Assembly (NCBI GenBank): GCA_963825645.1
Contig: CAWGTT010000011.1
Location: 32,558-64,557, forward strand
Source of the DNA: an uncultured Actinomycetota bacterium
GTDB lineage: Bacteria; Actinomycetota; Actinomycetes; Actinomycetales; Kineosporiaceae
DNA: 32,000 nucleotides
Reading direction: 5' to 3'
The position numbers and the translations under genes are program-made. Numbering within the stretch: the first letter of the stretch is position 1; every line of letters begins with the position of its first letter. Below the pieces are notes generated by a model. The model saw nothing but the letters and a program-made list of their open reading frames with translations. It had not been told where the DNA came from and ran no database searches. Shown piece by piece: positions 13,474 to 30,319 of this stretch.

Positions 13474-13607
13474 CCTACAGAGACCGAGCGTGTGTGACGT
13501 AGACCACAGAGTCGCCTCCGTGAGGCTTCGGGGGGGTGGGGTGTCTATCCATCGAGGGCCGGCGCTGGACGCGGCCCAGGAAGCCAACATCACGAGGGAG
13601 TCTGAAC

Positions 13608-14075
13608 GTGACGGAGAAGACGCTCGACAAGACGGCGGACAAGACCACGGTCGGCGCGGTGAGCTCTCGCGGTGCCGGGGTGCTGGTGACCAGCCAGGGC
13701 AAGACCTCCATCGCCGATAGCGTGGTCGCCAAGATCGCCGGCGTTGCGGCGCGCGAGGTTTCGGGGGTCCACAGCCTGGGCAGCGGCACCACGCGAGCCG
13801 TCGGCGCCTTGCGTGAGCGGATCCCCGGTAGTCGCACCAACTACTCCCAGGGGGTGGCCGTCGAGGTGGGCGAGCGTCAGGCCGCGGTCGACATCGACAT
13901 CGTGGCGGAATACGGGGTGGCCATCGCCGACCTGGCCGCAGGAATCCGCCGCAACGTGATCGGATCTGTCGAGCGGATGACCGGCCTGGAGGTCACCGAG
14001 GTCAACATCGTGGTGCATGACGTGTTCCTGGAGACCGACGAGGAGACCGAGCCCGCCGAGTCACGGGTTCAGTGA
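13608..14075 (+). CDS. Asp23/Gls24-family envelope stress protein
   Basis: GAGGGAG Shine-Dalgarno 7 nt before GTG 13608. Characteristic KTSIADSVVAKIAGVAAREVSGVHSLG...VAVEVGERQAAVDIDIVAEYG...VNIVVHDV. Confidence 0.9.
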   Translation: MTEKTLDKTADKTTVGAVSSRGAGVLVTSQGKTSIADSVVAKIAGVAAREVSGVHSLGSGTTRAVGALRERIPGSRTNYSQGVAVEVGERQAAVDIDIVAEYGVAIADLAAGIRRNVIGSVERMTGLEVTEVNIVVHDVFLETDEETEPAESRVQ

Positions 14076-14449
14076 CCGACCGATCGCCGGATCGACCTGA
14101 TCCGCCCGGCTCGACTCCACCGGCGCGGGATCCCGTCGACGACCTCGTCGACGCGGTCCTCGCCGTGCCGGGCGTGGAGGGACTGCACGGAGGAGTGTTC
14201 GGTGAGGTCGCCACCTACCTTCCGGGCCGACGGGTCACCGGCCTTCGGGTGCGGGGCGAGGATGTCGACGTGCATCTGGTACTCGCCTGGGGACAGCCGG
14301 TCCTGGCCACGGCTGATCGTGTGCGTGACGCGTTGGCGCGGAAGGTGAAGGGGCAGGTACATGTCACCGTCGAGGACATCCGCGCGCCGGACCCCGGCAG
14401 TGAGCTCTCCCGGGATGTGGCGCACCCGACGAAGGGGCCGGCCCATTGA
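14072..14449 (+). CDS. Asp23-related protein
   Basis: GTGA overlap with the upstream stop. Asp23-like core (AVLAVPGVEGLHGG...DVDVHLVLAWGQPVLATADRVRDAL...VHVTVEDI). Confidence 0.7.
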   Translation: MTDRSPDRPDPPGSTPPARDPVDDLVDAVLAVPGVEGLHGGVFGEVATYLPGRRVTGLRVRGEDVDVHLVLAWGQPVLATADRVRDALARKVKGQVHVTVEDIRAPDPGSELSRDVAHPTKGPAH

Positions 14450-14832
14450 CGTTCGCAGGCAAGGGAGTCCAGCCGTCGGCACGAGTGGCCGCATGGCGGC
14501 GCGAGCGGCGCGCGGTAGCCCGACGGCTGCACCCCGACCGCGGCGGCAGGACCGAGGACTACCTGGCCGCACTGGGCGAGGTCGACCGCCGATACGGTCT
14601 CAACGGCGAAGCCGTGGCAGCGTCCTCACGCGGGACGACGATGCGGCGCAGCGCTCGACGTTACCGCCGGCGAGCGCGCGGCCTGCTGCGACGGGCCCGG
14701 GCGCGGCTGCCTCGCGGCTTTCCCGGAGCCCGCCGCTACATCGACCTCGGCGATGGCCCGAACGACCGCCACCCGGGCCGGCCCGGCGGCCCCCCTCCGC
14801 CTCGTCCCACGTCGGCGCCACCCATCCCTTGA
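14446..14832 (+). CDS. hypothetical basic protein with a J-domain-like HPD segment
   Basis: High GC3. The TTG start overlaps the upstream TGA (GTG 14485 is an alternative). RRLHPDRGGRTEDYLAALGEVDRRYG resembles J-domain helix II, HPD loop and helix III. The rest is Arg/Pro-rich. Confidence 0.45.
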   Translation: MTFAGKGVQPSARVAAWRRERRAVARRLHPDRGGRTEDYLAALGEVDRRYGLNGEAVAASSRGTTMRRSARRYRRRARGLLRRARARLPRGFPGARRYIDLGDGPNDRHPGRPGGPPPPRPTSAPPIP

Positions 14833-14848
14833 CCATCCGGAGAATGAC

Positions 14849-15028
14849 ATGACTACATCCACCATCGGACTGATCGTCGGACTGCTGCTGGGGATCGCTG
14901 CCGCAGTAGGAGGCTTCTTCGGGTTCCTGCTCGCGCTGGTCCTGGGCGTCCTCGGCTACGCGGTGGGTGGCCAACTGGACGGCGAGTTCGACCTCGCCGG
15001 GCTCATCCGCGGCGGACGACGTGGATGA
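14849..15028 (+). CDS. DUF2273-like small membrane protein
   Basis: GGAG 6 nt upstream of ATG 14849. 59 aa: IGLIVGLLLGIAAAVGGFFGFLLALVLGVLGYAVGGQLDG. Confidence 0.8.
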   Translation: MTTSTIGLIVGLLLGIAAAVGGFFGFLLALVLGVLGYAVGGQLDGEFDLAGLIRGGRRG

Positions 15029-15386
15029 GAGCGCCGGCGACCCCGGCCAGCGGGGTCGCCTGGTGATCCATCCGCGCGTCGTCCGGCGTGTCGCGGAACG
15101 AGCCGCAGGCGAGGTGCCCAACGTCGTGACCGATCCGCGCGGCCTGCGCGGAGGGCTCCGGCGTGGATCCCCGACGGTCGACACCGTGGTCGCCGGACAC
15201 CGCGCCGTCCTCCGCGTCGACGTCACGGTGACCTGGCCCGCGGTCCTGGCCCAGGTGACAGCAGCCGTTCGGGACCAGGTGTCCTCCCAGGTGCAGGCCT
15301 TGTTAGGGGTCGATGTCGACCGAGTCGACGTGACCGTCCCGCGGCTCGTCCTGGACGAGCCGCAGCCCCGGCGGAGAGTGCAATGA
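15021..15386 (+). CDS. Asp23/Gls24-related protein
   Basis: GTG 15021 overlaps the end of the DUF2273 gene. LVIHPRVVRRVAERAAGEVPNV...RVDVTVTWPAVLAQVTAAVRDQVSSQVQALLGVDVDRVDVTV. Confidence 0.75.
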   Translation: MDESAGDPGQRGRLVIHPRVVRRVAERAAGEVPNVVTDPRGLRGGLRRGSPTVDTVVAGHRAVLRVDVTVTWPAVLAQVTAAVRDQVSSQVQALLGVDVDRVDVTVPRLVLDEPQPRRRVQ

Positions 15387-15497
15387 CGTCGACCCCGACC
15401 GCCCGCCCCGGAAGCCCCCGTCGAACGGATCGAACGCTCACCGCTGCCCGCCGCAGAGCCGCCCAAGTCCCTCACCACGACACGATGGCTGGGTGGC

Positions 15498-15977
15498 GTG
15501 ATGGCCATCGCATTGGCGGCCCTCGGAGTCGCCGCCCTCCGCGACGCCGGCGTCGCCGCCGGCTGGCTGGACGGCCCCGCCTGGACCGTGCAGGTCCTCG
15601 ACCTGCTCGACGGGCTCGGACCCAGCCGCTGGCAGCTCGTCGCCGGACCGATCGCCTGCTTACTCGGGATCGGGCTCATCGTCGCGGCGATCTCATCACG
15701 TCGCCGGTGGTACACCTTCCAGACGGGGCAAGGTATCTATCTGCGGCCTGCTGATATCGCCCGGCTGGCATCGGTGACGGCCCAGGACGTCGACGGGGTC
15801 ACGCGCGCATCCTCGGTGTCGGGCCGTCAGCGGCTCACGGTCCGGATCGAGTGCGCCGCCCCACCGGAGCCCGCCGCTGAGATCGCTCACGCCGTCCGAC
15901 TGGCCGTCGATGAGCGGGTGGCCCCTATCCGTCCGACGCCCCGCACCCGGGTCCGCCTCACCCGTAGCGGGATGTGA
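15498..15977 (+). CDS. DUF6286-like membrane protein (5' end probably disrupted or mis-framed)
   Basis: Two TM segments, then an Asp23-like C-terminal region (DVDGVTRASSVSGRQRLTVRIECAA...). The only in-frame start (GTG 15498) puts the TM helix at residue 1. An ATG at 15383 coupled to the upstream stop lies in another frame (see findings). Confidence 0.65.
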   Translation: MMAIALAALGVAALRDAGVAAGWLDGPAWTVQVLDLLDGLGPSRWQLVAGPIACLLGIGLIVAAISSRRRWYTFQTGQGIYLRPADIARLASVTAQDVDGVTRASSVSGRQRLTVRIECAAPPEPAAEIAHAVRLAVDERVAPIRPTPRTRVRLTRSGM

Positions 15978-15978
15978 C

Positions 15979-16548
15979 ATGAGCCGTACCGCGAACGTCC
16001 TGAACCGCCTCGCCCTTCTGGCACTGGGCCTGGTCCTGCTCGCCGGGGGCGCGGCGACCACGGCATGGGGCACCGGTCGATGGCAGATTCGAACAGGGGT
16101 GGTGGACACCTCCTCGGCGACCCGGATCGTCACCACGGCATGGTGGCCGTGGGCCGCTGCCCTGACCGGCATCCTCCTCATTGCGCTGGCCCTGCGCTGG
16201 ATCATCGCTCTCCTGGTCCAGAGACCCGTGCGCACCGTGGGGCTTTCCGGCTCGAGCGCCCAGGGCCGCCTCACCGTCAACGCCGACGCGGTTGTCCGAC
16301 CAGCATCAGCGCTACTCGAATCCACACTGGGCGTCCGCTCGGCGAAAGGCCGCTGGTTTCGCCATCGCGATCGGCTGGTCCTCGAGCTCACGGCCGCCAT
16401 CGACCCCGCCACCGACCTGGACACCGTCGCTGCGGCGTATACGCAGATCTCGGCGGACCTGGCGCATGGCTGGGCCGCCCCCGACGTCCAGGCGCGGCTT
16501 CTGATGCGCGCGGCCCGCCGCCCCCGAACGCTCCCCCGCGTCAACTGA
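15979..16548 (+). CDS. amaP: alkaline shock response membrane anchor protein AmaP-like
   Basis: ATG 1 nt after the upstream stop. Two N-terminal TM helices (NRLALLALGLVLLAGG..., WWPWAAALTGILLIALALRWIIALL), then a soluble domain. It is the last gene of the Asp23 locus, as is typical. Confidence 0.75.
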   Translation: MSRTANVLNRLALLALGLVLLAGGAATTAWGTGRWQIRTGVVDTSSATRIVTTAWWPWAAALTGILLIALALRWIIALLVQRPVRTVGLSGSSAQGRLTVNADAVVRPASALLESTLGVRSAKGRWFRHRDRLVLELTAAIDPATDLDTVAAAYTQISADLAHGWAAPDVQARLLMRAARRPRTLPRVN

Positions 16549-16642: not shown

Positions 16643-17125
16643 CTACGGCTTGAGGAGCTTGATCAGAACCAGCGCCAGCAGCAGCCCCGGCAGGACGAGT
16701 AGCCCCAAACCGAGTCCGGCTCCGGCGACGAGGGTGAGCATCCCTGCCATGACGAGAAGGGCCCGGCCGGCGGGTGCGAAGTCACGAAAACCGTTGGTGA
16801 GTGGTGCGAGGACGACCAGCAGTAGGAGGGACGCCGTCGCGAGAAGCTGCACCAGCCAGGCGCGACCACCGAGGGTCAGCAGCGATGCCAGCAGCGGGTG
16901 CCCGTCGAGCGCGGCCTCGACCCCGGGCGCCGAAGAGAGCAGCAGCACGTCCAGCGCGGCGGCGAGCCAGGGCCAGCGGGGTGGGCGGGACGCTACGGCC
17001 GGACGCCCAGGGCCGGGGGTCGGGCTGGCTGGTCGGACGCCGCCGGCGTCCAAGACCCACGCCTGGGTTCGCTGCTCGCGACTGTCGTCACGGTTCTGGT
17101 TGAGCTCGGTCACGGCTGCCTCCAT
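16643..17125 (-). CDS. integral membrane protein, terminal gene of the E2/JAB/E1 operon
   Basis: ATG 17125 lies 16 nt inside the 3' end of the E1 gene. High GC3. A roughly 50-aa polar N-terminus is followed by 3-4 hydrophobic helices (WLAAALDVLLLSS..., AWLVQLLATASLLLLVVLAPL, LLVMAGMLTLVAGAGLGLGLLVLPGLLLALVLI). Confidence 0.6.
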   Translation of the reverse strand: MEAAVTELNQNRDDSREQRTQAWVLDAGGVRPASPTPGPGRPAVASRPPRWPWLAAALDVLLLSSAPGVEAALDGHPLLASLLTLGGRAWLVQLLATASLLLLVVLAPLTNGFRDFAPAGRALLVMAGMLTLVAGAGLGLGLLVLPGLLLALVLIKLLKP

Positions 17126-17985
17126 AGCTCCGGTGTCTCCTCGCGCGTCGCGGGGTCCGCCGGGGCGCCGACCTCGACCGGCGCAGTCGGTCCGCACACG
17201 AGGCAGTCCGGCAGCCGCGACGCGCGGACCCAGACCGTCGCCCAGGGGTCGCCCCAGAGCCCGTCCGGTAGCTGGGCGAACAGGCCCCACCCCGGGACGT
17301 TCCCGGTGAGCGCCATGACCTTCCCTGAGTTCGACACGTGGTCGAGCCACGTCACCAGCGGTGAGGCCCGGCGATCGTCGGCCGCGCAGGACCGCTCCGC
17401 CAGGAGCGCGAGAGCGGCTTTCGCCGCCTGTGCCACCACGACAGCGATGTCGGCGCCGAGTGCCGGCTGAGCGATCAGGCGGCCCGTCCCGTAGTCGAGG
17501 TCATGGTCGCGGCGAGCGTCGCGGCCCGCGGTGACGCACCTCAGGCACGGCGAGCGACGCTGCGGGGAGATCCAGACCAGCTCGGCGGCCTCGGCCCGCG
17601 CGAACAGCTTCGCCGAGACCATCGGGACCCCCGCGCGGTAACACCGCTCGTTGACGCCCAGCTCGGCGACCGGGTCGTCGGTGGCGAGGACGGCAAGATC
17701 GGCGCGGACGAGGTCGGTCCCGGTGAGCAGGGACCGGACGTCCTGGGAAAACGCATGCACTGTCAGCGGCGGCGCGGCGATCTCGGTCAGCCGGTCCGCC
17801 AGGGCGGCCACCTTGAGACGGCCCACGTCGCGCGGCAGGTAGGCGGAGCGGGACAGGTTCCGGGACTCGACCCGGTCCGGGTCCACGAGGGTGAGGCGAG
17901 GCACGCCATGCCGGACGAGCGACTCGGCGATCTGGGACCCGACCGAGCCGACCCCGACGACGGCGACGTGCCAGGGCTCCTTCAT
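17110..17985 (-). CDS. ThiF/MoeB/E1-like adenylyltransferase
   Basis: Nucleotide loop VVGVGSVGS, DPDRVESRNLSRS motif, LATDD, and two CxxC pairs (CLRC, CLVC). ATGA overlap with the JAB stop. Confidence 0.9.
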   Translation of the reverse strand: MKEPWHVAVVGVGSVGSQIAESLVRHGVPRLTLVDPDRVESRNLSRSAYLPRDVGRLKVAALADRLTEIAAPPLTVHAFSQDVRSLLTGTDLVRADLAVLATDDPVAELGVNERCYRAGVPMVSAKLFARAEAAELVWISPQRRSPCLRCVTAGRDARRDHDLDYGTGRLIAQPALGADIAVVVAQAAKAALALLAERSCAADDRRASPLVTWLDHVSNSGKVMALTGNVPGWGLFAQLPDGLWGDPWATVWVRASRLPDCLVCGPTAPVEVGAPADPATREETPELWRQP

Positions 17986-18773
17986 GGCATGTCCCCGGCC
18001 ATGGGCCGGAATGGTCGGCCGCCGAACGAGACGAGTGGGGCGAGATCGGTTCGGACCGTGCTGATGAGGACATCGATGACGCCGTCGCGCTCGTCACCGC
18101 ACCGGGTGCGGCCGGCGGGATCGTCGTCCGAGCGCAGGAGCCGATGGCGCAGCCACAGCTCGCCGGTCCGCTCCTCCACCACGACGCCCGCCTCCCGAGG
18201 GCGTCTGCCCGTTCCCGCGCAGAGCCTGTGCACGACCTCCCGGACCGGGAGGAGCCGCAGCCGGGTAGCGCGCAGGTCTACACCGTGGTCCGTGAGCCGG
18301 CACCCGTACCCGGCGAGGCAACCGCCGGCCAGCGTGAGCAAGTGGGCGCTCCCCCATTCGGCGTGGACGGTTGACAGCCGGGTTGGGGGGCGGGGCACGA
18401 CGATGGGGAACAGCGCCTCCAGCAGCGCCCCGTTCGCGGCGAGGACCGCCTCGAACGCCCGCCGGTCCTGCCGGGAGGGCTCGGCGAGGTCCTCGGGATG
18501 GCTGTGCGCGGTGCCCCGATAGGCCAGGTCGGGGCGACGCTCACGGAGCCGGTCGAGGCGCTCGCCCAGTGCGTCGCTGTGCCGGTAGCCGACCGGGTCG
18601 CCGGGCTCGGGATCCACCACGATCTGGGTCACGAGCCGGGCGCCGTCCGGGCCGAGGAGAGCAGCGCCACGCTCGGCCTCGCCGGCACCCATGACGAGGG
18701 CGCGGGACAGCCGGTCCGCAGCGACGTCAGTGATCCACCATCCCGTTCGTGCCACCGACCGTTCAGGACGCAT
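17982..18773 (-). CDS. JAB/MPN (JAMM) metallopeptidase with a roughly 100-aa C-terminal extension
   Basis: Exact JAMM signature: E in GEAERGAALLG, then HSHPEDLAEPSRQD (HxHx7Sx2D). GGGGAGG Shine-Dalgarno 9 nt upstream of ATG 18773. The start overlaps the upstream gene by 11 nt. Confidence 0.85.
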   Translation of the reverse strand: MRPERSVARTGWWITDVAADRLSRALVMGAGEAERGAALLGPDGARLVTQIVVDPEPGDPVGYRHSDALGERLDRLRERRPDLAYRGTAHSHPEDLAEPSRQDRRAFEAVLAANGALLEALFPIVVPRPPTRLSTVHAEWGSAHLLTLAGGCLAGYGCRLTDHGVDLRATRLRLLPVREVVHRLCAGTGRRPREAGVVVEERTGELWLRHRLLRSDDDPAGRTRCGDERDGVIDVLISTVRTDLAPLVSFGGRPFRPMAGDMP

Positions 18774-19455
18774 AGGGGAAACGCCTCCCCCGCATCGCGT
18801 AGCCCGCACCTTCCTGCCACTGGACGGCGCGGGCCAGGGCGGTGTCCAGGCGAGGCAGCCCACCCAGCGGCCCGGCGCTCAGACACAGCACGACGCCGTC
18901 CGTGGTCGTGTAGACGTGCACGCCGTGGTGGGTCAGCGTGGGCACGCGACCGAGGAAGGCCTTCAGTGGGACAAGGGTGTCCCGCCCGGAGTCGTGGCAG
19001 ACGTAGGCCCACAGGTAGACGTGATAGAGCGCCGTCTCCTGCAGCAGGGCGACGATCGCGTGGAGGTAGTCACCGTGGCGCTGGCTGCGCGCTGTGCGGA
19101 AGTACCAGCCCTCTGGGGCCGCGGCCGGGATCGCGAGGCCACGCTCGCGTGCCCGGTCCACGGTGGCCAGACAGGCCAACCAGCGAGTACCACGGGCAGC
19201 CAGCTCGCGGACGACGCAAGCCTCCTGTGCGCGCCGCGCCACCGACGGCGCCGCGAACCGCTCCGCCGGAAGGACGGTCCCGTGGACCACCGTGCCGGCA
19301 GAGCGCACCTCCACCGTGCCGTCCGGGAGCAGCACCACCTCTCCCCCGGCGCGGCGCGCATCTCGCTCAGCGGACTGGAACGGATCGATCCAGGACTCGA
19401 CATCGTCGGACGTGAACGGCACGGCCGCTTCGCTGCGAACGACTCTGTTGCTCAT
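18763..19455 (-). CDS. UBC/E2-like candidate protein (first gene of the overlapping E2-JAB-E1-TM block)
   Basis: Strong Shine-Dalgarno (GGAGAAGGAGAAGG) ahead of ATG 19455. The segment THHGVHVYTTTDGVVLCLS resembles the E2 active-site flap (HPN...dG.iCL). The fold assignment is inference only. Confidence 0.7.
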   Translation of the reverse strand: MSNRVVRSEAAVPFTSDDVESWIDPFQSAERDARRAGGEVVLLPDGTVEVRSAGTVVHGTVLPAERFAAPSVARRAQEACVVRELAARGTRWLACLATVDRARERGLAIPAAAPEGWYFRTARSQRHGDYLHAIVALLQETALYHVYLWAYVCHDSGRDTLVPLKAFLGRVPTLTHHGVHVYTTTDGVVLCLSAGPLGGLPRLDTALARAVQWQEGAGYAMRGRRFPYAS

Positions 19456-19465
19456 GGCCCCTTCT

Positions 19466-19505
19466 CCTTCTCCATGTCCCGACCGCCTTCTCCATGTCCC
19501 GACCG
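19466..19505. repeat. perfect 20-bp tandem direct repeat (2 copies) in the leader of the E2-like gene
   Basis: ccttctccatgtcccgaccg occurs at 19466-19485 and again at 19486-19505. On the coding (minus) strand each copy reads CGGTCGGGACATGGAGAAGG, so it carries an ATG plus an SD-like GGAGAAGG. Confidence 0.95.
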
Positions 19506-19507
19506 CC

Positions 19508-19538
19508 GGGGACGCTCCGCCGCGCACACCGCGTCCCC
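19508..19538 (-). terminator. GC-rich hairpin abutting the stop of the upstream membrane-protein ORF (terminator or attenuator candidate)
   Basis: ggggacgc (19508-19515) pairs with gcgtcccc (19531-19538): an 8-bp stem with a 15-nt loop. There is no U-tract. Confidence 0.3.
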
Positions 19539-20062
19539 TAGACCCGAGTCAGGACACGTACGCACGAGACCAGCACCGCCAGACCGACCGCCATCGCGAG
19601 GACCGTCGCCGCGGCCACCACCACGGCGCCCACAGATGCCACGACGGACGCGGCGACGCCGGCGTACTCGAGTGCCTCCCACCCGTGGGCGACTCGGCCG
19701 AGCGCGTTGGCGACGCCGCTTACCACCAGCGCGACGAGCGCCACCACGCACAGGGCCAGGCACAGTGCTGGGCGGCCCCCCAGGGTGGCTACCGAGCACG
19801 CGAGGCCCGAGCAGTCGGGTCGACCCATGAGCCAGGTCTGGCCGGCAGCCACGCCGGCATCCACACCGATCAAGAGAACCGAGACGCGCCGGAACGGGCG
19901 GGCAATCCACGTCTGCGACACGGTGGCCGTCCGGGTCCGGTCCCACCCGGGACGGCTAACGGGGCTCCGCCACGCCCACGACGCGCTGCGGCGCACAACC
20001 GGCGGTGGCGCAACCGGCAACGACCAGCTACCAGGCGGCGCCGCCTCGTCCCAACTACGCAC
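19538..20062 (-). CDS. hypothetical membrane protein (Trp-rich N-terminus, 2-3 C-terminal TM helices)
   Basis: GC3 is high across the whole ORF. The C-terminal half is hydrophobic (ALCLALCVVALVALVVSGV..., VVASVGAVVVAAATVLAMAVGLAVLV). The start is uncertain (GTG 20062 or ATG 19828). Confidence 0.5.
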   Translation of the reverse strand: MRSWDEAAPPGSWSLPVAPPPVVRRSASWAWRSPVSRPGWDRTRTATVSQTWIARPFRRVSVLLIGVDAGVAAGQTWLMGRPDCSGLACSVATLGGRPALCLALCVVALVALVVSGVANALGRVAHGWEALEYAGVAASVVASVGAVVVAAATVLAMAVGLAVLVSCVRVLTRV

Positions 20063-20632
20063 GGCGTCTCACCAATCCTCTCGACACCAGCTCTGCATGC
20101 CTTTCGCCCGACCCAGTGCACGAGCGTCTGGGTCGTTCAGACACGATCTGTGGTGGGCGCAGGGCGGCCGCGAATACGCCTCCGCTCGACCGTTCGGGTG
20201 CAAGAGAGCTTGCTGCAGCGGACGTTTCGGCATGTCGTCCTCCGACTCGCCACCTCGGTGGCGGGACTGAGTGCGCTGACAGGGGCGGCTCACTGGGTGT
20301 AGCCGGCCTGAGATCGTGTAGCCCCGACGGCGATAGACGGCCGGCTCTTCGGCTGTGGCGGACAGGCGGCCGCGATCCGCACCGTCGCCGCACTCTCGCA
20401 TTACCAAGGGGCATGCGAGGTACGTGAACGCGCCTAGCTCAGCAAAGATCGGACAAGCGTGGTAGTGCAATCGGCGCCGACGCCTGGCTGATCGGCATCT
20501 GGCCTGTCAACGGTCCGGACCTAGCGAGGAGTACTCATCGAACTCCCGATTCAATAATCCACCAAATCAGGACAGTTTGGCAAGTGCCAGAGGCGAATTC
20601 CTCGTGCGAATGTCAGCGGTAGTTGCCCAGTC

Positions 20633-23734: not shown

Positions 23735-24352
23735 GTGAGCGCGCGCGGCGACGAACGGCCCCGCGCGCAGGGCGCGGTCCGCTCGACTTGTCATGTGGTG
23801 GTGCCCCGACAAGAAGCAGAAGCAACGCCGGCGCGAACGTCCCCGCCGCCCGGCCGCCTTGTTCTGTGGTGCTTCGCGCTGGCCTACGGCCTCAGTTGGG
23901 CATGGGTCATACCTTGGGCGGCAACCGGCCACACGGTCATCCAGGGCCGCCTGCCCCCGCGCGATGACTTCGCCGGCTTCAGCGGTCCGCCCACTGGCCT
24001 CGGACTGCTGGGAGTGTGGGCCCTCGTCCTGCTGGTGAACGGGCTCGGAGAGGAAACCGGTTGGCGCGGTTACGCGCTCCCCCAACTGCAACGCCGCTTC
24101 GGTCCACTCACCAGCAGCCTGATCATCGCCGGAACCTGGGACGGCTGGACATCCCGCAGTTCTTCTGCTGGACACCTACGAGAACTTCTCTGCGGCGATG
24201 CTCCCGATCTTCGTCCTCGGACTACCGGTGGGGCCATCGTGTTGACCTGGCTGTACAACCACACCGGCGGCAGCATCCTCGCCGTTGCGGTCCGGCACGG
24301 GCTGTACGACCTGACCGGCGCCACGACAGCGGCCCGCTCAGGTCCGGAGTGA
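23735..24352 (+). pseudogene. CPBP-family (CAAX/Abi-type) intramembrane protease relic with internal frame disruptions
   Basis: Motif 1 GEETGWRGYALPQLQRRFGPL and the C-terminal IVLTWLYNHTGGSILAVAVRHGLYDL are in frame. The roughly 28 codons between them are hydrophilic nonsense, while the expected TM sequence (IPQFF / LLLDTYENFSAAMLPIFVLGLPVG) sits in the other two frames. The N-terminal part also looks shortened. Confidence 0.55.
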
Positions 24353-24543: not shown

Positions 24544-25590
24544 GTGGGCGCTCGTCGCGAGCACCGAGTGGTCGACATCGCCGCTCAGGCTGGGTTGAGC
24601 CGCGCGACAGTGGACAGGGTTCTGCACGGTCGTGAGGGAGTCCGACCGGAGACGGTCGCGCAGGTGAACCGGGCGATCGACGATCTGGAGCGCCAACGGG
24701 AGCAGGTCCACCTGTCGGGGCGAACGCTGATCCTGGACCTGGTGATGCAGACGCCGGAACGTTTTGCCGTCGCATCACGGGACGCGCTGGAGGCCGAGCT
24801 GCGGTCGTTGCGGCCGGCGGTGCTGCGGGCACGGTCGCACCTGAGCGAGCACAGCGACCCGGCGGCTGCGGCGGCCCTCCTGGACGCCCTGGGCCGCAAG
24901 CGGTCGCACGGGGTCATCCTCAAGGCGCCGGACCATCCGCTGGTCGTCGACGCGGTGCAGCGACTGGCCGACCGAGGCATTCCGACCGTCACGTTCGTGA
25001 CCGACGTGCCGGACAGCCGGCGGACGGCGTACGTGGGCATGGACAACCTGGCCGCCGGAGCGACGGCCGCCTATCTCATCACACAGTGGGCCGGACGGTC
25101 CGGAGGAGTCCTGGTGACCGTGAGCCACTCGTCGTTCCGCGGCGAGGAGGAGCGTGAGATCGGCTTCAGACGGACGCTGGCCGAGTTGGCGCCCAAGCGG
25201 AAGGTCCACGAGGTGACAGACACCGACGGCATGGACCAGACGATTCTGGTGGCCGTTCGCGGCGCGTTGGCGCTGCACCCGTCGATCAACGCGGTCTACT
25301 CCGCGGGCGGCGGGAACGTGGCCACGCTCACAGCGTTCGAGGAGATCGGTGTGACGCCGACGGTGTACATCGCGCACGACCTCGACGGCGACAACAGGGC
25401 CCTGCTGCGGACGCGGAAGATCTCCGCGGTCCTTCATCACGACATGCGGGCGGACATGCGGCGGGCGTGCCGCCTTCTGCTGCAGGCGCGCGGGCTGCTG
25501 CCGGGTAAGCCGGCGAACATCCCGTCCCAGGTGCAGGTCATCACGCCGTACAACGAGCCTGCGTCGATCGTCGGCTACTCCGAGCTGTGA
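24544..25590 (+). CDS. LacI-family transcriptional regulator
   Basis: AGGAGG 4 nt before GTG 24544. HTH VVDIAAQAGLSRATVDRVLHGREGVRPETVAQV, then a periplasmic-binding-protein-like sugar-binding domain. Confidence 0.9.
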   Translation: MGARREHRVVDIAAQAGLSRATVDRVLHGREGVRPETVAQVNRAIDDLERQREQVHLSGRTLILDLVMQTPERFAVASRDALEAELRSLRPAVLRARSHLSEHSDPAAAAALLDALGRKRSHGVILKAPDHPLVVDAVQRLADRGIPTVTFVTDVPDSRRTAYVGMDNLAAGATAAYLITQWAGRSGGVLVTVSHSSFRGEEEREIGFRRTLAELAPKRKVHEVTDTDGMDQTILVAVRGALALHPSINAVYSAGGGNVATLTAFEEIGVTPTVYIAHDLDGDNRALLRTRKISAVLHHDMRADMRRACRLLLQARGLLPGKPANIPSQVQVITPYNEPASIVGYSEL

Positions 25591-25635
25591 GCGCATCGGC
25601 TCACAGCCCGTTCGGCCGGGAGTGGCCGGCACAGC

Positions 25636-26514
25636 TCACGTGGCGAGCAGGCCACGCAGGTAGTCCGCGCTGGTCCTGACGTCCGCGACGGGGCCCTCGC
25701 CGGCGGGCGGCCCGGTGAGGATGGTGTCCTGCTCGAGGGTGTACCAGCCGTCGTAGCCGTCGCCGCGCAGGTGCCCGACGATGGCGGCGACGTCGACGTC
25801 GCCCTGGCCCAGCGGCCGGTACATGCCCGCGCGGACCGCCTCGGTGTAGGTGAGGCGACCGGCCCGGACCTTGCGGACGTAGTTGAGGTCGACGTCCTTG
25901 AAGTGGGTGTGGGCGATCCGGTCGGGCACCTGGCCGGTGAGGACGGCCGGGTCGGTGCCTCCGATGAGCAGGTGGCCGGTGTCCAGGCACAGGCAGATGG
26001 CCGAGCCGTCGAGGACGCGCTGCACGTCCGGCCCGGTCTCGACCATGGTGCCGACGTGTGGGTGGAGCACGGCGCGGATGCCGTGCTCGGCGGCGCGGGC
26101 GGCGACGCGGTCCAGGTTGCGCAGGAGCCGCTGCCAGCCCGCTTCGTCAAGGTCGGGCCGGTAGTCGTAGCCGGTCAGGCCGGAGTCGGCGCACAGGACC
26201 ATGACGCCGGCACGGGCGGCCTTGAAGCCGGGCAGGAGCCGTTCGAGCTCGACCATCGGGTCCACGTCGGCGCGGTGGAGGACGAACGGGGTGAAGCCGC
26301 CGACTGCGTGCAGGTTGTGGTCCGCGAGGGTCTTGGCCAGCTCGTCGGGGTCGGCGGGAAGGAAGCCGTCCGGGCCGAGCTCGGTGGCGGCGAGGCCGAC
26401 TTCGCTCATCTCGCTGAGCACCTGGTCGGCGGGGAGCTGGTAGCCCCACCCGGGGACTTCGCAGACTCCCCAGCTGATCGGGGCACCTGCGATGCGGTCG
26501 ATGTCGTGGATCAT
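25636..26514 (-). CDS. sugar phosphate isomerase/epimerase (xylose-isomerase-like TIM barrel; IolE-like inosose dehydratase candidate)
   Basis: N-terminus IAGAPISWGVCEVPGWGYQL. TIM-barrel metal ligand context (HPHVGTMVE, LCLDTGHLLIGG). ATGA overlap with the upstream stop. Confidence 0.8.
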   Translation of the reverse strand: MIHDIDRIAGAPISWGVCEVPGWGYQLPADQVLSEMSEVGLAATELGPDGFLPADPDELAKTLADHNLHAVGGFTPFVLHRADVDPMVELERLLPGFKAARAGVMVLCADSGLTGYDYRPDLDEAGWQRLLRNLDRVAARAAEHGIRAVLHPHVGTMVETGPDVQRVLDGSAICLCLDTGHLLIGGTDPAVLTGQVPDRIAHTHFKDVDLNYVRKVRAGRLTYTEAVRAGMYRPLGQGDVDVAAIVGHLRGDGYDGWYTLEQDTILTGPPAGEGPVADVRTSADYLRGLLAT

Positions 26515-27524
26515 CGTTCCTCCTGTGTGGGCACGCCGGCGCCGGGGAAGTCCCATTCACGGTTGGCCAGGGCGGCCGGCCGGCGGCCGGCGAGGACGTC
26601 GGCGACGCCCTGCGCGGCCGCGGTGAAGGTGGCCCTCGTGGCACCGACGCTCAGCCCCATCAGGTGGGGCGACAGGACGACGTCGGTGCGGTCGAAGACC
26701 GGGTGGTGCGTCGGTGGTTCGGGGTCGAAGACGTCCAGGCCGAGGCCGGCGAGCCGGCCGTCGGCGAGGGCTCGGGCGGCGGCGTCGAGGTCGAGTAGCC
26801 CGCCGCGGCCGCAGTTCACCAGGATCGCCCCGGACGCCATGGCGGCTAGGAAGTCTGCGTCGACCAGATGGTGGGTCTGTGGAGTCAGCGGCAGGTGGAG
26901 CGTGACGATCTGCGAACGGGTGCGCAGTTCGTCGAGGCTGACGAGCCGCGCGCCGTCAGTGTCCGGCCCACGGGTGCCGGTTCCAGTGGTGTCGGCCCCG
27001 GCGAGGTAGGGGTCGTGGGCCAGGACGGTCATGCCGAACGCGCGGGCCAGGTGGCCGACCCGGCGGCCGATCCGGCCGTAGCCGACGATGCCGATCGTGG
27101 CGCCGTCGAGGTCACCTAGGGTGATCGCGTCGCGTTCGGTCCAGCGGCCTCGCGCGACGCAGTCGGTCGTCCTACGCAGCTGCTTGACCAGGTGGAGGAT
27201 CATCGCCAGGGCGCCTTCGGCGACGGCGTTGGTACCGGCGCCGGGGGTGACGACGACGGCGATTCCGCGGCGGGTGGCTTCGGCGACGTCGAGGCGTTCC
27301 ACGCCGACGCCGGTGCGGGCAAGCACCTGGAGGTTCGGCATCCGGTCGAGCATCGCGCCCTCGACGAGGACGTCGGCCCGCACGATCGCTCCGGTGGCGG
27401 CGTGGAGGTCTTCCGGGCCCGGGTGGGCCACGAACTGCACGTCCGCCGGCAGGTGCGCAGTGACGAGGTCGGGTTCGACGGTGCCGAGGGCGACGACGAC
27501 CTGCCGGCCGACGGCGGTCTTCAC
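26511..27524 (-). CDS. D-isomer-specific 2-hydroxyacid dehydrogenase family protein
   Basis: NAD loop GIVGYGRIGRRVGHLARAFGMTVLAHDP. Catalytic-domain motifs (LVNCGRGGLLD, SPHLMG). GTGA overlap with the aldolase stop. Confidence 0.9.
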   Translation of the reverse strand: MKTAVGRQVVVALGTVEPDLVTAHLPADVQFVAHPGPEDLHAATGAIVRADVLVEGAMLDRMPNLQVLARTGVGVERLDVAEATRRGIAVVVTPGAGTNAVAEGALAMILHLVKQLRRTTDCVARGRWTERDAITLGDLDGATIGIVGYGRIGRRVGHLARAFGMTVLAHDPYLAGADTTGTGTRGPDTDGARLVSLDELRTRSQIVTLHLPLTPQTHHLVDADFLAAMASGAILVNCGRGGLLDLDAAARALADGRLAGLGLDVFDPEPPTHHPVFDRTDVVLSPHLMGLSVGATRATFTAAAQGVADVLAGRRPAALANREWDFPGAGVPTQEER

Positions 27525-28306
27525 GGTGTCTCACCGGCCCTTCGCAGCTCGGCGACGACGGCGCCGGCGAGCAGGGTCGTGTCGGAGCCGATGGCGAGGA
27601 ACTGCCAGCCGGCCGCGGACATCCGGGCGGCTGCGGCGCCGTCCGTCACGAGCAGCCCGGCGGCCTTGCCGTTCGCCGTCGCGGCGGCGAGGACCCGGTC
27701 GAGGGCGGCGAGGTAGACCGGTGCCTGGGTCTGGCCCGGGACGTCGAGGGCGTGGCTGAGGTCGCGGGGACCGACGAACAGGACGTCGACGCCGTCGAGG
27801 GCCGCGATGTCCTCCACGGCGTCCAGGGCCGGGCGGGTCTCGATCTGCACCACGCCGAGAACGTCGTCGTTGGAACGGTCGAGGGCGCCGGGGTCCAACC
27901 CGTACCGGCACATGCGGTTGTAGGTCGCCACCCCTCTGTCCCCCGTCGGCGGGTAGCGCAGGTGCCGTACGCACGCCGCGGCCTGCTCGGCGCTGTCGAC
28001 CCGGGGGAACATGACCCCGGCCGCGCCCAGGTCGAGCAGGCGACCGGCGCGGATCCGCTCGGTGGACTCGACGCGGACGACGGTCGGCACCGAGTACGAC
28101 GCGGCGGCGGGGATGACGTCGCGGGCCTGTTCCTCGCCGCCGACGCCGTGCTCGAGGTCCAGCAGGACCCAGTCGACCCCGGCTGCAGCGCACACTTCGG
28201 CGCTGACCGGTGCGGCGGCTCCGAGGAAGGTGCCGTAGGTGACCTCGCCGCGGGCGAGCCGTCGTCGCAGCTCACCGCGGTCCACGGCATACCGGTCGCG
28301 CGTCAT
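27521..28306 (-). CDS. HpcH/HpaI-family (class II) 2-keto-3-deoxy-acid aldolase
   Basis: GTFLGAAAPVSAEVCAAAGVDWVLLDLEHG..., VVRVES, GVMFPRV, VVQIETRPALDAVEDIAALDGVDVLFVGPRDLS. ATGA overlap with the iolD stop. Confidence 0.85.
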   Translation of the reverse strand: MTRDRYAVDRGELRRRLARGEVTYGTFLGAAAPVSAEVCAAAGVDWVLLDLEHGVGGEEQARDVIPAAASYSVPTVVRVESTERIRAGRLLDLGAAGVMFPRVDSAEQAAACVRHLRYPPTGDRGVATYNRMCRYGLDPGALDRSNDDVLGVVQIETRPALDAVEDIAALDGVDVLFVGPRDLSHALDVPGQTQAPVYLAALDRVLAAATANGKAAGLLVTDGAAAARMSAAGWQFLAIGSDTTLLAGAVVAELRRAGETP

Positions 28307-30264
28307 CCGTGCCACCGCTGCGTGGCCAGGCCGGCTTCGTAGTGGCTTCGGGCGGCGCGGATCGTGTCGGACTCGGATACCTCCGCGGGCGCGACGTCCC
28401 ACCAGCAGCCCGCCGACGGCAGGTCGGCGTGCGGGATGACGGGGACGACGATGACGACCGGACGCGTCTGCGAGCGGGTCTCCTCGAGCGCGCGCCGGAC
28501 CTCGGCGGCGGTGATGGCGCGCAGAGCATGGGCGCCCAGGCCGGCTGCGACCGGGACGAGGTCGAGCTGGAGGTAGTCGCCGGTCAGGGCGACGTCCTTT
28601 CCAGCCTCGAAGGTCAGCGGGGCGGTGCGGTACCGGAACTCGTTGCCGAACTCGCGGCCCATCGTGAACATCTGCAACCGATGGATGACCTGGTAGCCGT
28701 GGTTCTCCGGAACCACCACGGTGATCGCCAGGCCTTCCTGGGCGGCCGTGACGAGCTCGGTGGGCGCCATCAGGAAGGTGCCGTCACCGATGAACGCGGT
28801 GACCCGGTGCGCCGGGTCGGCGTCGGCGAGCCGGGCGCCGATCGCGGCCGGGATCTCGTACCCCATGCAGGAGAACCCGAACTCGAGGTGGCAGTTGCGT
28901 CCGCCGGTCGCGTCCCAGACCTTCAGCAGGTCACCGGGCGGGCCGCCGGCGGCGGCGACGATCGTGTCGCCCTGCCGGGCGTGCTCCTGGAGCAGCCCGA
29001 TGAGCTGGCCCTGGGTGAGGAGGGCATCGGTGTCCGGGATGACGTCGGTGGACTGGGCGCGCAGCGCGTCCACATCGACCGGTGTGTCGGCGTCCAGGGC
29101 CGCCGCGCGCACGGGCGCCCAGGCGGCCTTGGCGGCCCCCACCCTGTCCCGCCATGCGGCGCTGGTCATGACACCGGCGGCCACGAGCGTGTCGGCCAGC
29201 GCGCGTAGGGCGAGCTGGGCGTCGCCGAGGACCGAGGTCGCGCCGAGCCGATCACCGTCGCGCGGGTCGACGTTGATGCTCGCGAACCGCACGTCGGGCG
29301 CGGTGAACAGCGAGTGGGAGGCGGTGGCGAAGTCGGTCAGGCGGGACCCGACGGTGACCACGAGGTCGGCGTCGCGGGCCACCTCGTTGGTCGCGGGGTT
29401 GCCCTCGAGGCCGATGCCCCCGAGCTGCCACCAGGCGTCGGCGCGGACGGCGCCCTTGCCGGCGAAGGTCTCGGCGACCGGGACGCCGACGGCGTCGGCG
29501 AGCCGCTCGAGCTCGGTGCTGGCCTCGGAGTAGAGGACACCGCCACCGGCGATGATGAGCGGGCGGGACGCCGCCGTGACCAACTCGGCGAGTGCGGTGA
29601 CCTCGTCCTGCTCGGGGACCGGCCGGCGGATCACCCAGTCGCGCTCGGCGAAGAACTCCACCGGGAAGTCGTGGGCGTGCGACTGGATGTCCTGCGGCAG
29701 GGACAGGACGGCGGCTCCGGTGGTGACCGGGTCGACGAGCACCCGCATGGCTGCCGGGAGCGCGGTGAGCAGCTGCTCGGGACGGGTGATGCGGTCGAAG
29801 AACCGGGACACCGGGCGGAAGGCGTCGTTGACGCTGGCGTCGGCCTCGATCGGGTGCTGGAGCTGCTGTAGGACCGGTCCCTGACGGCGGGTGGCGTAGG
29901 AGTCACCGGGCAACAGCAGGACGGGCAGCCGGTTCACGGTCGCCAGGCCGGCGCCGGTGACCATGTTGAGCGCGCCGGGGCCGATGGACGCGGTGACGGC
30001 CAGTGCAGCTCGGCGCTTGGAGGTCTTGGCGAAGCCGCTGGCGATGTGAACCAGGCCCTGCTCATTGCGGCCCTGGATGAACGGCAGGTCGTCGCGGTAC
30101 TGGTCCAGCGCCTGCCCGAGTCCGGCGACGTTGCCGTGACCGAAGATCCCCATCGCGGCGGGGATCAGGCGACGGCGGGCGCCGTCCGCGACGCTGTACT
30201 GCTTGGCCAGGTACAGGACCAGGGCCTGGGCCGTGGTGAGGCGCACGGTGCGGTTGCTTGTCAT
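28303..30264 (-). CDS. iolD: 3D-(3,5/4)-trihydroxycyclohexane-1,2-dione acylhydrolase (decyclizing), ThDP-dependent
   Basis: AGGAGAAGG Shine-Dalgarno before ATG 30264. IolD-type N-terminus RLTTAQALVLYLAKQY. ThDP motif GDGTFLM...ENHGYQ. Roughly 650 aa, typical for IolD. Confidence 0.85.
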   Translation of the reverse strand: MTSNRTVRLTTAQALVLYLAKQYSVADGARRRLIPAAMGIFGHGNVAGLGQALDQYRDDLPFIQGRNEQGLVHIASGFAKTSKRRAALAVTASIGPGALNMVTGAGLATVNRLPVLLLPGDSYATRRQGPVLQQLQHPIEADASVNDAFRPVSRFFDRITRPEQLLTALPAAMRVLVDPVTTGAAVLSLPQDIQSHAHDFPVEFFAERDWVIRRPVPEQDEVTALAELVTAASRPLIIAGGGVLYSEASTELERLADAVGVPVAETFAGKGAVRADAWWQLGGIGLEGNPATNEVARDADLVVTVGSRLTDFATASHSLFTAPDVRFASINVDPRDGDRLGATSVLGDAQLALRALADTLVAAGVMTSAAWRDRVGAAKAAWAPVRAAALDADTPVDVDALRAQSTDVIPDTDALLTQGQLIGLLQEHARQGDTIVAAAGGPPGDLLKVWDATGGRNCHLEFGFSCMGYEIPAAIGARLADADPAHRVTAFIGDGTFLMAPTELVTAAQEGLAITVVVPENHGYQVIHRLQMFTMGREFGNEFRYRTAPLTFEAGKDVALTGDYLQLDLVPVAAGLGAHALRAITAAEVRRALEETRSQTRPVVIVVPVIPHADLPSAGCWWDVAPAEVSESDTIRAARSHYEAGLATQRWHG

Positions 30265-30319
30265 GTCCTTCTCCTTGGGACGCAAGGGATCTGCACTGGC
30301 GTCAGAGACAGCGGGCGGG

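Follow-up and report, generated by a model that had tools for sequence, protein, structure and literature searches.

A very rare actinobacterial cassette encoding an E2-like protein, a JAB peptidase, a Cys-less E1 and small membrane proteins: a putative ubiquitination-like conjugation module

Bacterial systems that combine an E1, an E2 and a JAB peptidase, such as type II CBASS, Bil and Bub, are viewed both as the stock from which eukaryotic ubiquitination arose and as antiviral machinery, and each newly dissected family has brought unexpected chemistry, including cGAS in the place of the ubiquitin-like protein (Ubl) and oxyester intermediates. Here we describe a five-gene cassette found in a 32,000-nucleotide stretch of DNA, hereafter the window, from an uncultured actinobacterium of the Kineosporiaceae (GenBank assembly GCA_963825645.1, contig CAWGTT010000011.1, positions 32,558 to 64,557). 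The cassette encodes a small membrane protein named TMup, a 230-amino acid (aa) E2-like protein, a JAB/JAMM metallopeptidase, an E1-like adenylyltransferase of the ThiF family, and a second small membrane protein named TMdn (Table 1). It is real, very rare, restricted to Actinomycetota and behaves as one unit. With moderate confidence, we read it as a self-contained ubiquitination-like conjugation module that represents a previously unclassified family, with conflict or defence at the membrane as its most likely function.

The closest described systems differ in how they supply the modifier and in the chemistry of its transfer. In the type I Bub system (6E.1/DUF6527), BubAB is a Ubl-E2 fusion cut by the JAB of BubCD, which is itself a JAB-E1 fusion; the E1 has a single ThiF domain and a crossover loop that lacks Cys and has one invariant Tyr (Y370), the hallmark of Bub E1 proteins, and acts via a Ubl~Tyr oxyester, while the conjugating protein uses a catalytic Ser within a Ser-x-His motif, and BubE is a DUF6527 (PF20137) serine protease (PMC11601596). 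In type II CBASS the E2 domain of Cap2 is Atg3/Atg10-like, and in Bil (type I, or 6D, and type II, or 6C/CEHH) the modifier is pre-processed by the JAB as a matter of principle (PMC10557695). The FtsH-ternary conflict systems include a Ubl-E2 fusion, from which release by the JAB has been proposed, together with an E1 and a RING protein (Kaur et al. 2020, PMC7159879). By sequence, the cassette is nearest to the Cap2/Cap3 and 6A-MBL group, by architecture to type I Bub, and by gene order to Bil; it is effectively a new family and seems to add a branch to the ubiquitin-like conjugation systems of bacteria. No earlier description of its architecture was found in the open-access literature. The first-pass annotation of this DNA had likened the locus to Bil. 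The order E2, JAB, E1 bears this out, while the closest architecture is rather that of type I Bub or of the FtsH-ternary Ubl-E2 fusions.

The five open reading frames (ORFs) are all on the minus strand within positions 16643-20062, with the starts and overlaps that had been annotated. The genes for the E2-like protein and the JAB overlap by 11 nt (18763-18773), those for the JAB and the E1 by 4 nt through an ATGA (17982-17985), and those for the E1 and TMdn by 16 nt (17110-17125); 82 nt separate TMup from the gene for the 230-aa protein. The chosen frames have a G+C content of 0.82-0.91 at third and 0.52-0.62 at second codon positions, the coding signature of high-G+C actinomycetes (the window has about 70% G+C and the cassette about 72%). 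Since this signature is lost in the longer extensions of the ORFs (the 254-aa, 293-aa and 235-aa versions), the annotated start sites are supported.

Four metagenomic relatives (L001 to L004) form a near clade with the window copy. Their genes follow the order TMup, 230-aa protein, JAB, E1 and TMdn, and their 230-aa proteins are 57-68% identical to that of the window; L003 stops shortly after the start of the E1 gene, leaving TMdn uncovered. With the order of the five genes repeated in four independent metagenomic loci, whose proteins are 35-68% identical, chance is a most unlikely source of the arrangement. The window and these relatives are homologous across 16646-20068 and share nothing outside, and it is because the homology stops at these edges that we define a 3.4-kb cassette.

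More distant members, which matched the near-clade profile with E values of 1e-34 to 1e-17 and are 28-37% identical to the window protein when full-length members are compared, show a different layout: an E2-like protein, a JAB fused to an E1 (572-640 aa in all), a protein of 192-200 aa that is itself conserved, and one membrane protein homologous to TMup and TMdn. The 192-200-aa protein is a fixed member of the distant clade (Table 1) that is not found in the window clade, where the second membrane paralogue occurs instead. Its conserved motifs are PLLDPIVFGVIG and, at the C-terminus, [FY]PL[TA]AW-x-W, and nothing in Pfam, NCBIfam, PADLOC or PHROGs matches it. Across both clades the E2-like gene adjoins its cognate JAB or JAB-E1 gene in 14 of 14 distinct loci, and each of the 10 loci with enough flanking sequence also has a homologue of the membrane proteins. 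The linkage of the triad and the conservation of membrane-protein genes beside it, both of which the first-pass annotation had proposed, are thus borne out. So is its observation that the locus has no separate beta-grasp gene, no CD-NTase and no protein ending in GG: neither the cassette nor the related loci examined include genes for a Ubl, a CD-NTase, a DUF6527 protein or a sulfur or cofactor pathway, and none of the cassette proteins has a GG C-terminus.

The family is very small. A word-indexed search of 5.8e9 proteins yielded six homologues of the 230-aa protein, and 17 family members, 14 of them at E <= 1e-10, came from searching 1.84e9 cluster representatives exhaustively with a profile. 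Relatives were present in two of 185,579 species-representative genomes, Nocardioides sp. LHD-245 (L019, NZ_JAVFWN010000005.1) and Ruania rhizosphaerae (L020, NZ_VSMB01000025.1), both Actinomycetota and the only genomes of cultured isolates with a relative; a scan of genome contigs with the near-clade profile gave no match. Two homologue searches that started from the JAB sequence and profile, and considered at most 8000 candidates, added little. The four-gene Nocardioides cassette, at about 268.9-273 kb of its contig, is intact. In Ruania the genes for the E2-like and the 200-aa proteins appear split across frames and could be pseudogenes or the result of assembly errors. With these two cultured hosts the questions raised by the cassette are directly testable.

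The E1 matched Pfam ThiF at 8.4e-27 (94.3 bits against a cut-off of 28.1). Its best PADLOC match was the E1 half of the Cap2-type 'E1-E2' models (2.2e-28, profile positions 177-383 of 431), while its NCBIfam matches (ThiF, MoeB, 6A-MBL cap2_3 and SAMP E1) were all far under the cut-offs (79.9 against 275 for ThiF). Among PDB sequences it matched MoeB, ThiF, Uba4, UBA5, Cap2, MccB and PaaA, with MoeB and ThiF on top (4e-21). The protein consists of a single ThiF domain of the homodimer type, with the sequence GVGSVG, D35, the Arg finger in NLSR46, K58, D103/D104 and two CxxC motifs. The ThiF identity, the GxGxxG and the two CxxC motifs had been annotated correctly, but the pattern DxDxVxxSNLxR was off by one residue, the actual segment being DPDRVESRNLSR. 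The adenylation residues and the zinc tetracysteine that define an E1/ThiF adenylyltransferase are intact and, judged by these residues, the protein is adenylation-competent.

The crossover loop of the E1, which runs from the first CxxC to the G-x-D-I segment, has no conserved Cys and includes instead the sequence D164-Y165-G-x-G-R; the pattern C-x-x-C...D-Y-G-[TS]-G-R is invariant in the 11 distinct loci (16 contigs) that cover it. The HMMER alignments end at the CxxC, and we infer that Tyr165 stands at about the position of the loop Cys of MoeB (C187) and ThiF (C184). A loop of this kind recalls that of BubCD with its Y370, a comparison made from the published description and not by alignment.

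The JAB matched Pfam Prok-JAB at 2.6e-8 (34.2 bits against a cut-off of 25), PADLOC JAB at 6.6e-6 and, weakly, Cap3 at 8e-4. The HxHx7Sx2D site reported by the first-pass annotation is present as HSHPEDLAEPSRQD at 18465-18506, and the catalytic Glu, E34, is invariant in nine homologues together with H90, H92, S100 and D103, from which the JAB is predicted with confidence to be a catalytically intact peptidase. The JAB domain is followed by an alpha/beta domain of about 110 aa, which is the C-terminal part of the JAB protein in the window and sits between the JAB and the E1 in the distant-clade fusions. The AlphaFold2 model of the JAB protein is poor, with a predicted local distance difference test score (pLDDT) of 51 overall and of 56-79 for this domain, and a Foldseek search of PDB with it gave a meaningless result, with levansucrases on top. 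The order of secondary structures in the domain, b-b-a-b-b-b, is the one ground on which, at this pLDDT, a beta-grasp or ubiquitin-fold domain could tentatively be proposed. The C-terminal sequence SFGG was considered as a Ubl tail and rejected, as the GG is not conserved among the relatives.

The junction of the JAB and E1 genes in the window (17960-18060) is about 35 codons shorter than in L001, L002, L004 and the fused versions. The missing parts are the C-terminal helix of the JAB (W-D-P...) and the N-terminal Arg segment of the E1 (A-R-x-R-G-H-L-P); in other E1 enzymes an N-terminal Arg adds to ATP binding. Ahead of the ATG, the E1 frame still contains a remnant, '..AHGRGHAMKEPW', that resembles the ARVRGHLPYGAPW of the relatives, with no ATG, GTG or TTG start preceding it. 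The short junction could represent an attenuated allele, a non-canonical start or a frameshift-dependent fusion. The window ORFs are otherwise intact, and identical copies are found in several samples.

The 230-aa protein has no match in Pfam, NCBIfam, PADLOC or PHROGs (E <= 1) or among PDB sequences, including when the family profile was searched against PDB. A PADLOC check of the cassette recognized the E1 and the JAB, and neither this protein nor the two membrane proteins. Alignment of 19 members showed that T141, H180, Y182, C191, L192, G199, W213, G216, G223, F226 and P227 are invariant. C191 is the sole Cys invariant across the family, C153 being conserved in the near clade only; it lies in HHGVHVYTTTDGVVLCLS (residues 176-193), and the motif H-x-Y...[LI]-L-C-L-S...G-G is found in 21 of 21 loci. 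The sequence V-R-G-x-x-F-P-Y near the C-terminus is almost invariant, with R222 nearly so, and is followed by one to four variable residues. An AlphaFold2 model built from the 19 sequences has a pLDDT of 79 and a predicted template modelling score of 0.66. Its N-terminus is disordered. Next come a small subdomain formed by helix 25-36 with strands 39-61, a linker of low confidence (61-70, pLDDT 57) and the core, made up of a helix at 72-87, five strands spanning 93-162, two short helices, a hairpin (180-191) that carries C191 at its tip and a long helix at 203-221. A UBC-type core that lacks its two C-terminal helices would show this order of elements; Atg10, Atg3, BubB and the Cap2 E2 domain are examples. 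Of the UBC fold with a Cys in the LCLS sequence that the first-pass annotation had expected, the Cys itself is invariant. We consider the protein a plausible though unproven member of the UBC superfamily, a diverged E2-like protein whose genomic coupling to the JAB and E1 is strong.

In the near clade the core is preceded by one N-terminal module, whereas two copies are found in most distant members and three in P0007. These modules are about 45-55 aa long, and the C-terminal pattern of each copy is [L]-[PT]-x-[ED]-[RK]-F-[AGS]-[AGS], in its most permissive form [RKTV]-F-[AGS]-[AGS] and in its simplest R-F-[AG]-[AGS]; the low-confidence linker connects the last copy to the E2-like core. The window copy ends in LPAERFAA, with RFAA encoded at 19249-19260. 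By analogy with BubAB, the module may be a fused modifier or mark a site of cleavage by the JAB. It is the best candidate for the modifier because no locus has a separate Ubl and there is no hidden ORF; even so, our choice of it as the most likely modifier is tentative and could well be mistaken.

A working mechanism can be proposed on these grounds. The N-terminal module of the E2-like protein would be the modifier and would be cut by the JAB at its R-F-A-A end, as BubCD does on BubAB and as has been proposed for the FtsH-ternary Ubl-E2 fusions (PMC7159879); the JAB would in this way expose a C-terminus for activation, and would also reverse conjugation. The E1 would adenylate the C-terminus of a protein and, because it lacks a Cys in the crossover loop, the acyl-adenylate is proposed to pass to Cys191 of the E2-like protein either directly or through Tyr165, as in Bub E1. 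Cys191 would then hand the acyl group on to an amine of the target. The membrane proteins, with three to four transmembrane (TM) helices, could be the target, the anchor or the effector, for instance a pore-forming one, and conjugation could switch on, or hold off, permeabilization of the membrane. A more specific version, which we regard as rather improbable, is a ubiquitin-free pathway in which a mini-domain of about 50 aa without a beta-grasp fold, in one to three copies, would be released by the JAB from an Atg10-like E2, activated by a Cys-less Tyr E1, and attached to, or made to gate, the protein with three to four TM helices. If true, protein modifiers would gain a new class, and bacteria their first E1/E2 system directed at the membrane.

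Both membrane proteins have no match in Pfam, NCBIfam, PADLOC, PHROGs or PDB sequences. TMup is conserved in L001 to L004 and TMdn in L001, L002 and L004, and TMup is homologous to the single membrane protein of the distant clade (L6_171 and L7_175). TMup has an N-terminal W-D-x3-P-P-G motif followed by a Pro/Arg-rich linker; according to its hydropathy, a weak first TM helix with an Asp, a loop with C-x4-C and ATLGGRP, and two or three strong TM helices come next. Conservation of the W-D-x3-P-P-G motif in the relatives backs the 174-aa form of the protein, while public gene calls give a 127-aa form. Comparison of TMup and TMdn with hhalign gave a co-linear match over 87 columns (E = 5e-4, probability 31%), and TMdn has a TLGGR motif in the loop; the two proteins are probably paralogues. 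The TMdn homologues share an invariant Lys three to six residues from the C-terminus ([IVT]-K-L-[LIM]) in proteins that are otherwise poor in Lys, and TMup has no Lys at all. The near-C-terminal Lys of TMdn is a possible acceptor site. The sequence ATLGG was also considered as a GG processing site and rejected: a Gly is kept in 10 of 11 sequences, L7_175 having TWHHNP, and the loop may be extracytoplasmic.

A role in conflict or defence is favoured because of the defence-type neighbours of the distant relatives, the extreme patchiness of the family and the limitation of homology to the cassette. In the distant relative L005, a gene for a ThsA-like SIR2 protein (3.9e-22; 2867-4483) lies next to the E2-like gene, with a secreted metalloprotease-like gene on its other side. 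Since L017, a locus otherwise about 93-98% identical to L005, does not have it, the SIR2 gene neighbours the cassette without being part of it; the difference suggests an insertion hot spot beside the cassette. Genes for a HEC-07-like protein (8e-21) and for a kinase, a PP2C, a DUF4407 and a vWA protein also adjoin distant relatives, and the Nocardioides cassette is flanked by an EACC1-type caspase operon (1e-17) and a DUF4407 gene, so that DUF4407 is found in two independent distant-relative loci. This is guilt by association over a handful of loci, and the defence role suggested by the first-pass annotation is not established; the window is no defence island, and the case comes solely from the neighbours of the distant relatives.

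Several observations weigh against the conjugation and defence reading. The E2 fold of the 230-aa protein is undemonstrated. No E2, Cap2, Bil or Bub hidden Markov model matched it, and Foldseek comparison of its model with PDB gave nothing at E < 1: KmAtg10 (2lpu) was second at E = 1.1, with a TM-score of 0.44 normalized to the target, and ScAtg3 (6ojj) was twentieth, among unrelated alpha/beta folds. When the family was compared by hhalign with four canonical E2 enzymes, whose sequences are to be taken as approximate, one local match placed C191 on the catalytic Cys in register with HPN...C, at a non-significant E = 0.25 and a probability of 0.24%. A modelled helix with three strands is too small for a beta-grasp, and the N-terminal module would be a non-Ubl modifier without precedent. 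Cleavage and conjugation are both predictions from sequence. The window copy, shortened at the JAB/E1 junction, may be impaired or attenuated; the TLGG loop of the membrane proteins is not invariant and hence is unreliable as a GG processing site; and no family member was found in phage collections, plasmid collections or viral contigs. Finally, the neighbours in the window are not defence genes: they encode glycosyltransferases, a P-type ATPase, an Asp23/DUF6286 cluster, an XRE(DUF5753)/DUF397 pair, a major facilitator superfamily (MFS) transporter and inositol-catabolism-like functions.

The comparison with described systems points in more than one direction. As in type I Bub, the conjugating protein has one to three N-terminal domains, the E1 has a single ThiF domain with an invariant Tyr in a loop without Cys, a JAB-E1 fusion exists (here in the distant clade), and relatives lie in defence-type neighbourhoods. 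Unlike in Bub, the putative nucleophile is the invariant Cys191 and not a Ser-x-His, the N-terminal modules are about 50 aa long with no recognizable beta-grasp, an extra domain of about 110 aa comes after the JAB, small TM proteins always accompany the enzymes, and the JAB and E1 genes are separate in the window clade. BubE was not found by Pfam in the window cassette or among the distant-clade partners, and no sequence-level match to Bub components was detected. The best profile matches of the E1 and the JAB fall in the Cap2/Cap3 group of type II CBASS and in 6A-MBL cap2_3, and CBASS also has no dedicated beta-grasp Ubl; on the other hand, a CD-NTase and a cyclic-oligonucleotide effector are absent from the window and every related locus, and the scores are far under curated cut-offs. 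Cap2 is an E2-E1 fusion with a catalytic Cys in both domains; here the E2-like protein has its own gene and gives no match to the E2 part of the Cap2 models, and no catalytic Cys is found in the E1. Bil (BilABCD) shares the gene order, but its Ubl gene bilA, or any beta-grasp ORF, is absent here and BilD is a multidomain IAD-AAD-CYS protein, not a 291-aa single-domain E1. The His of the 230-aa protein lies upstream of the Cys, while that of 6D is C-terminal to it and the name CEHH of 6C implies the order Cys, Glu, His, His. With the FtsH-ternary systems the cassette shares the conflict setting in actinobacteria and multicellular bacteria and possibly a modifier lodged in the E2 polypeptide, and one relative lies beside an EACC1-type caspase; the RING E3, vWA-MoxR, FtsH and the EAD1 adaptor occur in no locus examined, and membrane proteins are found instead. 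The non-canonical E2 enzymes Atg10 and Atg3, which like the modelled 230-aa protein lack the C-terminal UBC helices, are the best, though non-significant, structural analogues (E about 1); there is no similarity in sequence, and membership in their group is not established. What is new in the cassette, then, is an E2-like protein outside all existing profile libraries; the pairing of a Cys-less E1 with a Cys-bearing E2-like protein, which stands between thioester and oxyester systems; the absence of a beta-grasp gene in the presence of repeated mini-modules fused to the E2-like protein; and the obligatory small membrane proteins, which point to a membrane target or effector.

The unproven fold of the 230-aa protein leaves room for a CBASS-like logic without the cyclase, in which this protein would be the modifier or substrate, its C-terminal tail being trimmed by the JAB, adenylated by the E1 and attached, for example, to a membrane protein. 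Few parts of the protein are as well conserved as its very C-terminal end (G223, F226 and P227), which is followed by a short variable extension, a pattern expected of a pro-form trimmed by a JAB, and the E1 and the JAB score best against Cap2- and Cap3-type profiles. Nevertheless, a C-terminal Tyr or Pro-Tyr would be unusual as an E1 substrate, the invariant Cys in the H-x-Y...C-L-S hairpin and the Atg10-like topology point to a catalytic thiol protein, and a system with a Cys-less E1 would be left without any thiol carrier. We consider this explanation unlikely.

The obligatory membrane partners and the non-defence neighbours in the window and the near clade would also suit a housekeeping or regulatory modification of membrane proteins, or their quality control, through reversible tagging of the two TM proteins or through conjugation to a lipid or envelope amine, as in the formation of Atg8-phosphatidylethanolamine. 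The weak structural likeness to Atg10 and Atg3, which are E2 enzymes of autophagy conjugation, and a divergent GNAT acetyltransferase gene in four of five near-clade loci are in line with this. The very sparse and patchy distribution (17 clusters in 1.84e9 and two of 185,579 species representatives) and the cassette-limited homology, which is typical of accessory or conflict modules, argue against a housekeeping role, as does the location of distant relatives beside SIR2, caspase, DUF4407 and HEC-07-like genes, and we judge it improbable.

An E1 without a catalytic Cys is also found in MccB, which with PaaA was among the PDB matches, and the repeats at the N-terminus of the E2-like protein might be taken for units of a precursor. 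In a pathway for ribosomally synthesized and post-translationally modified peptides (RiPPs), an E1 of the MccB/PaaA type would adenylate the C-terminus of a peptide released by the JAB, and the membrane proteins and the GNAT protein, present in four of five near-clade loci, would serve in export and self-immunity, as do MccC and MccE. However, there is no short precursor gene, the E1 has no RiPP recognition element or peptide-clamp domain, and MccB and PaaA match it no more closely than MoeB, UBA5 and Cap2 do. The GNAT gene is missing from the window and the distant clade, a conserved transporter is absent, and a JAB-E1 fusion with a Cys protein is the signature of a Ubl-type system; such a pathway seems to us highly improbable. 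Pathways that use a sulfur carrier or build a cofactor, such as CysO/Mec+/MoeZ or QbsCDE, have a JAB and a ThiF-type E1 at their core, and the sub-threshold NCBIfam ThiF and MoeB matches would fit them. This reading has the least support and is hardly credible, given that there is no ThiS, MoaD or CysO-like protein and no protein ending in GG, that the E1 has no rhodanese domain and scores well under every NCBIfam equivalog cut-off (79.9 against 275 for ThiF), and that none of more than 10 loci includes a sulfurtransferase, a cysteine synthase or other biosynthetic gene. An embedding of homologous triads in cofactor or sulfur-transfer clusters, which would have spoken against the first-pass reading, was not seen in these loci.

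Table 1. Coordinates of the features of the cassette and of the 192-200-aa protein genes in related loci.
Feature	Position	Strand	Remarks
TMup, 174-aa membrane protein	19538-20062	minus	
E2-like protein, 230 aa	18763-19455	minus	
N-terminal module of E2-like protein, residues 24-69	19249-19386	minus	helix and three strands
Cys191 codon	18883-18885	minus	motif H180-x-Y182...V-L-C191-L-S193...GG
JAB/JAMM metallopeptidase, 263 aa	17982-18773	minus	
E1-like ThiF-family adenylyltransferase, 291 aa	17110-17985	minus	
Tyr165 codon of E1	17491-17493	minus	crossover loop
TMdn, 160-aa membrane protein	16643-17125	minus	
8-bp GC hairpin (GGGGACGC...GCGTCCCC)	19508-19538	minus	abuts TMup stop codon
Exact 20-nt tandem duplication CGGTCGGGACATGGAGAAGG, two copies	19466-19505	minus	read from sequence
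192-200-aa protein	L005 7633-8211; L007 10766-11368		also in L016, L018, L019 and L020

The surroundings of the cassette are ordinary chromosomal context. A cluster of the Asp23/Gls24 type (Asp23, small membrane proteins and DUF6286; 13536-16548) lies directly downstream on the opposite strand, and a LacI regulator gene with inositol-catabolism-like genes, for an IolD-like thiamine pyrophosphate enzyme, an aldehyde dehydrogenase and an HpcH aldolase, occupies 24544-31759. A gene for an Rce1-like intramembrane protease of the CAAX type (23735-24352) follows immediately after the MFS transporter gene and is probably unrelated to the cassette. Upstream of TMup, a 570-bp gap (20063-20632) with 63% G+C, lower than that of the cassette, contains no ORF with the coding signature and no hidden Ubl ORF. 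It takes the place of the GNAT gene of the other near-clade loci, where that gene is divergently transcribed, and no remnant of the gene was detectable in the window. Within the gap, at 20554-20583 on the minus strand, is the one sequence of the region that matches a sigma-70-like promoter.

An Rfam scan of the whole window gave no match. The hairpin that had been noted upstream of the E2-like gene exists, but its folding is no better than that of shuffled sequences (z = 0.3), and it is not followed by a T tract. The 20-nt tandem duplication doubles a Shine-Dalgarno-like GGAGAAGG in the ribosome-binding region immediately upstream of the ATG of the E2-like gene; it could affect the initiation of translation or be the trace of a recent slippage event.

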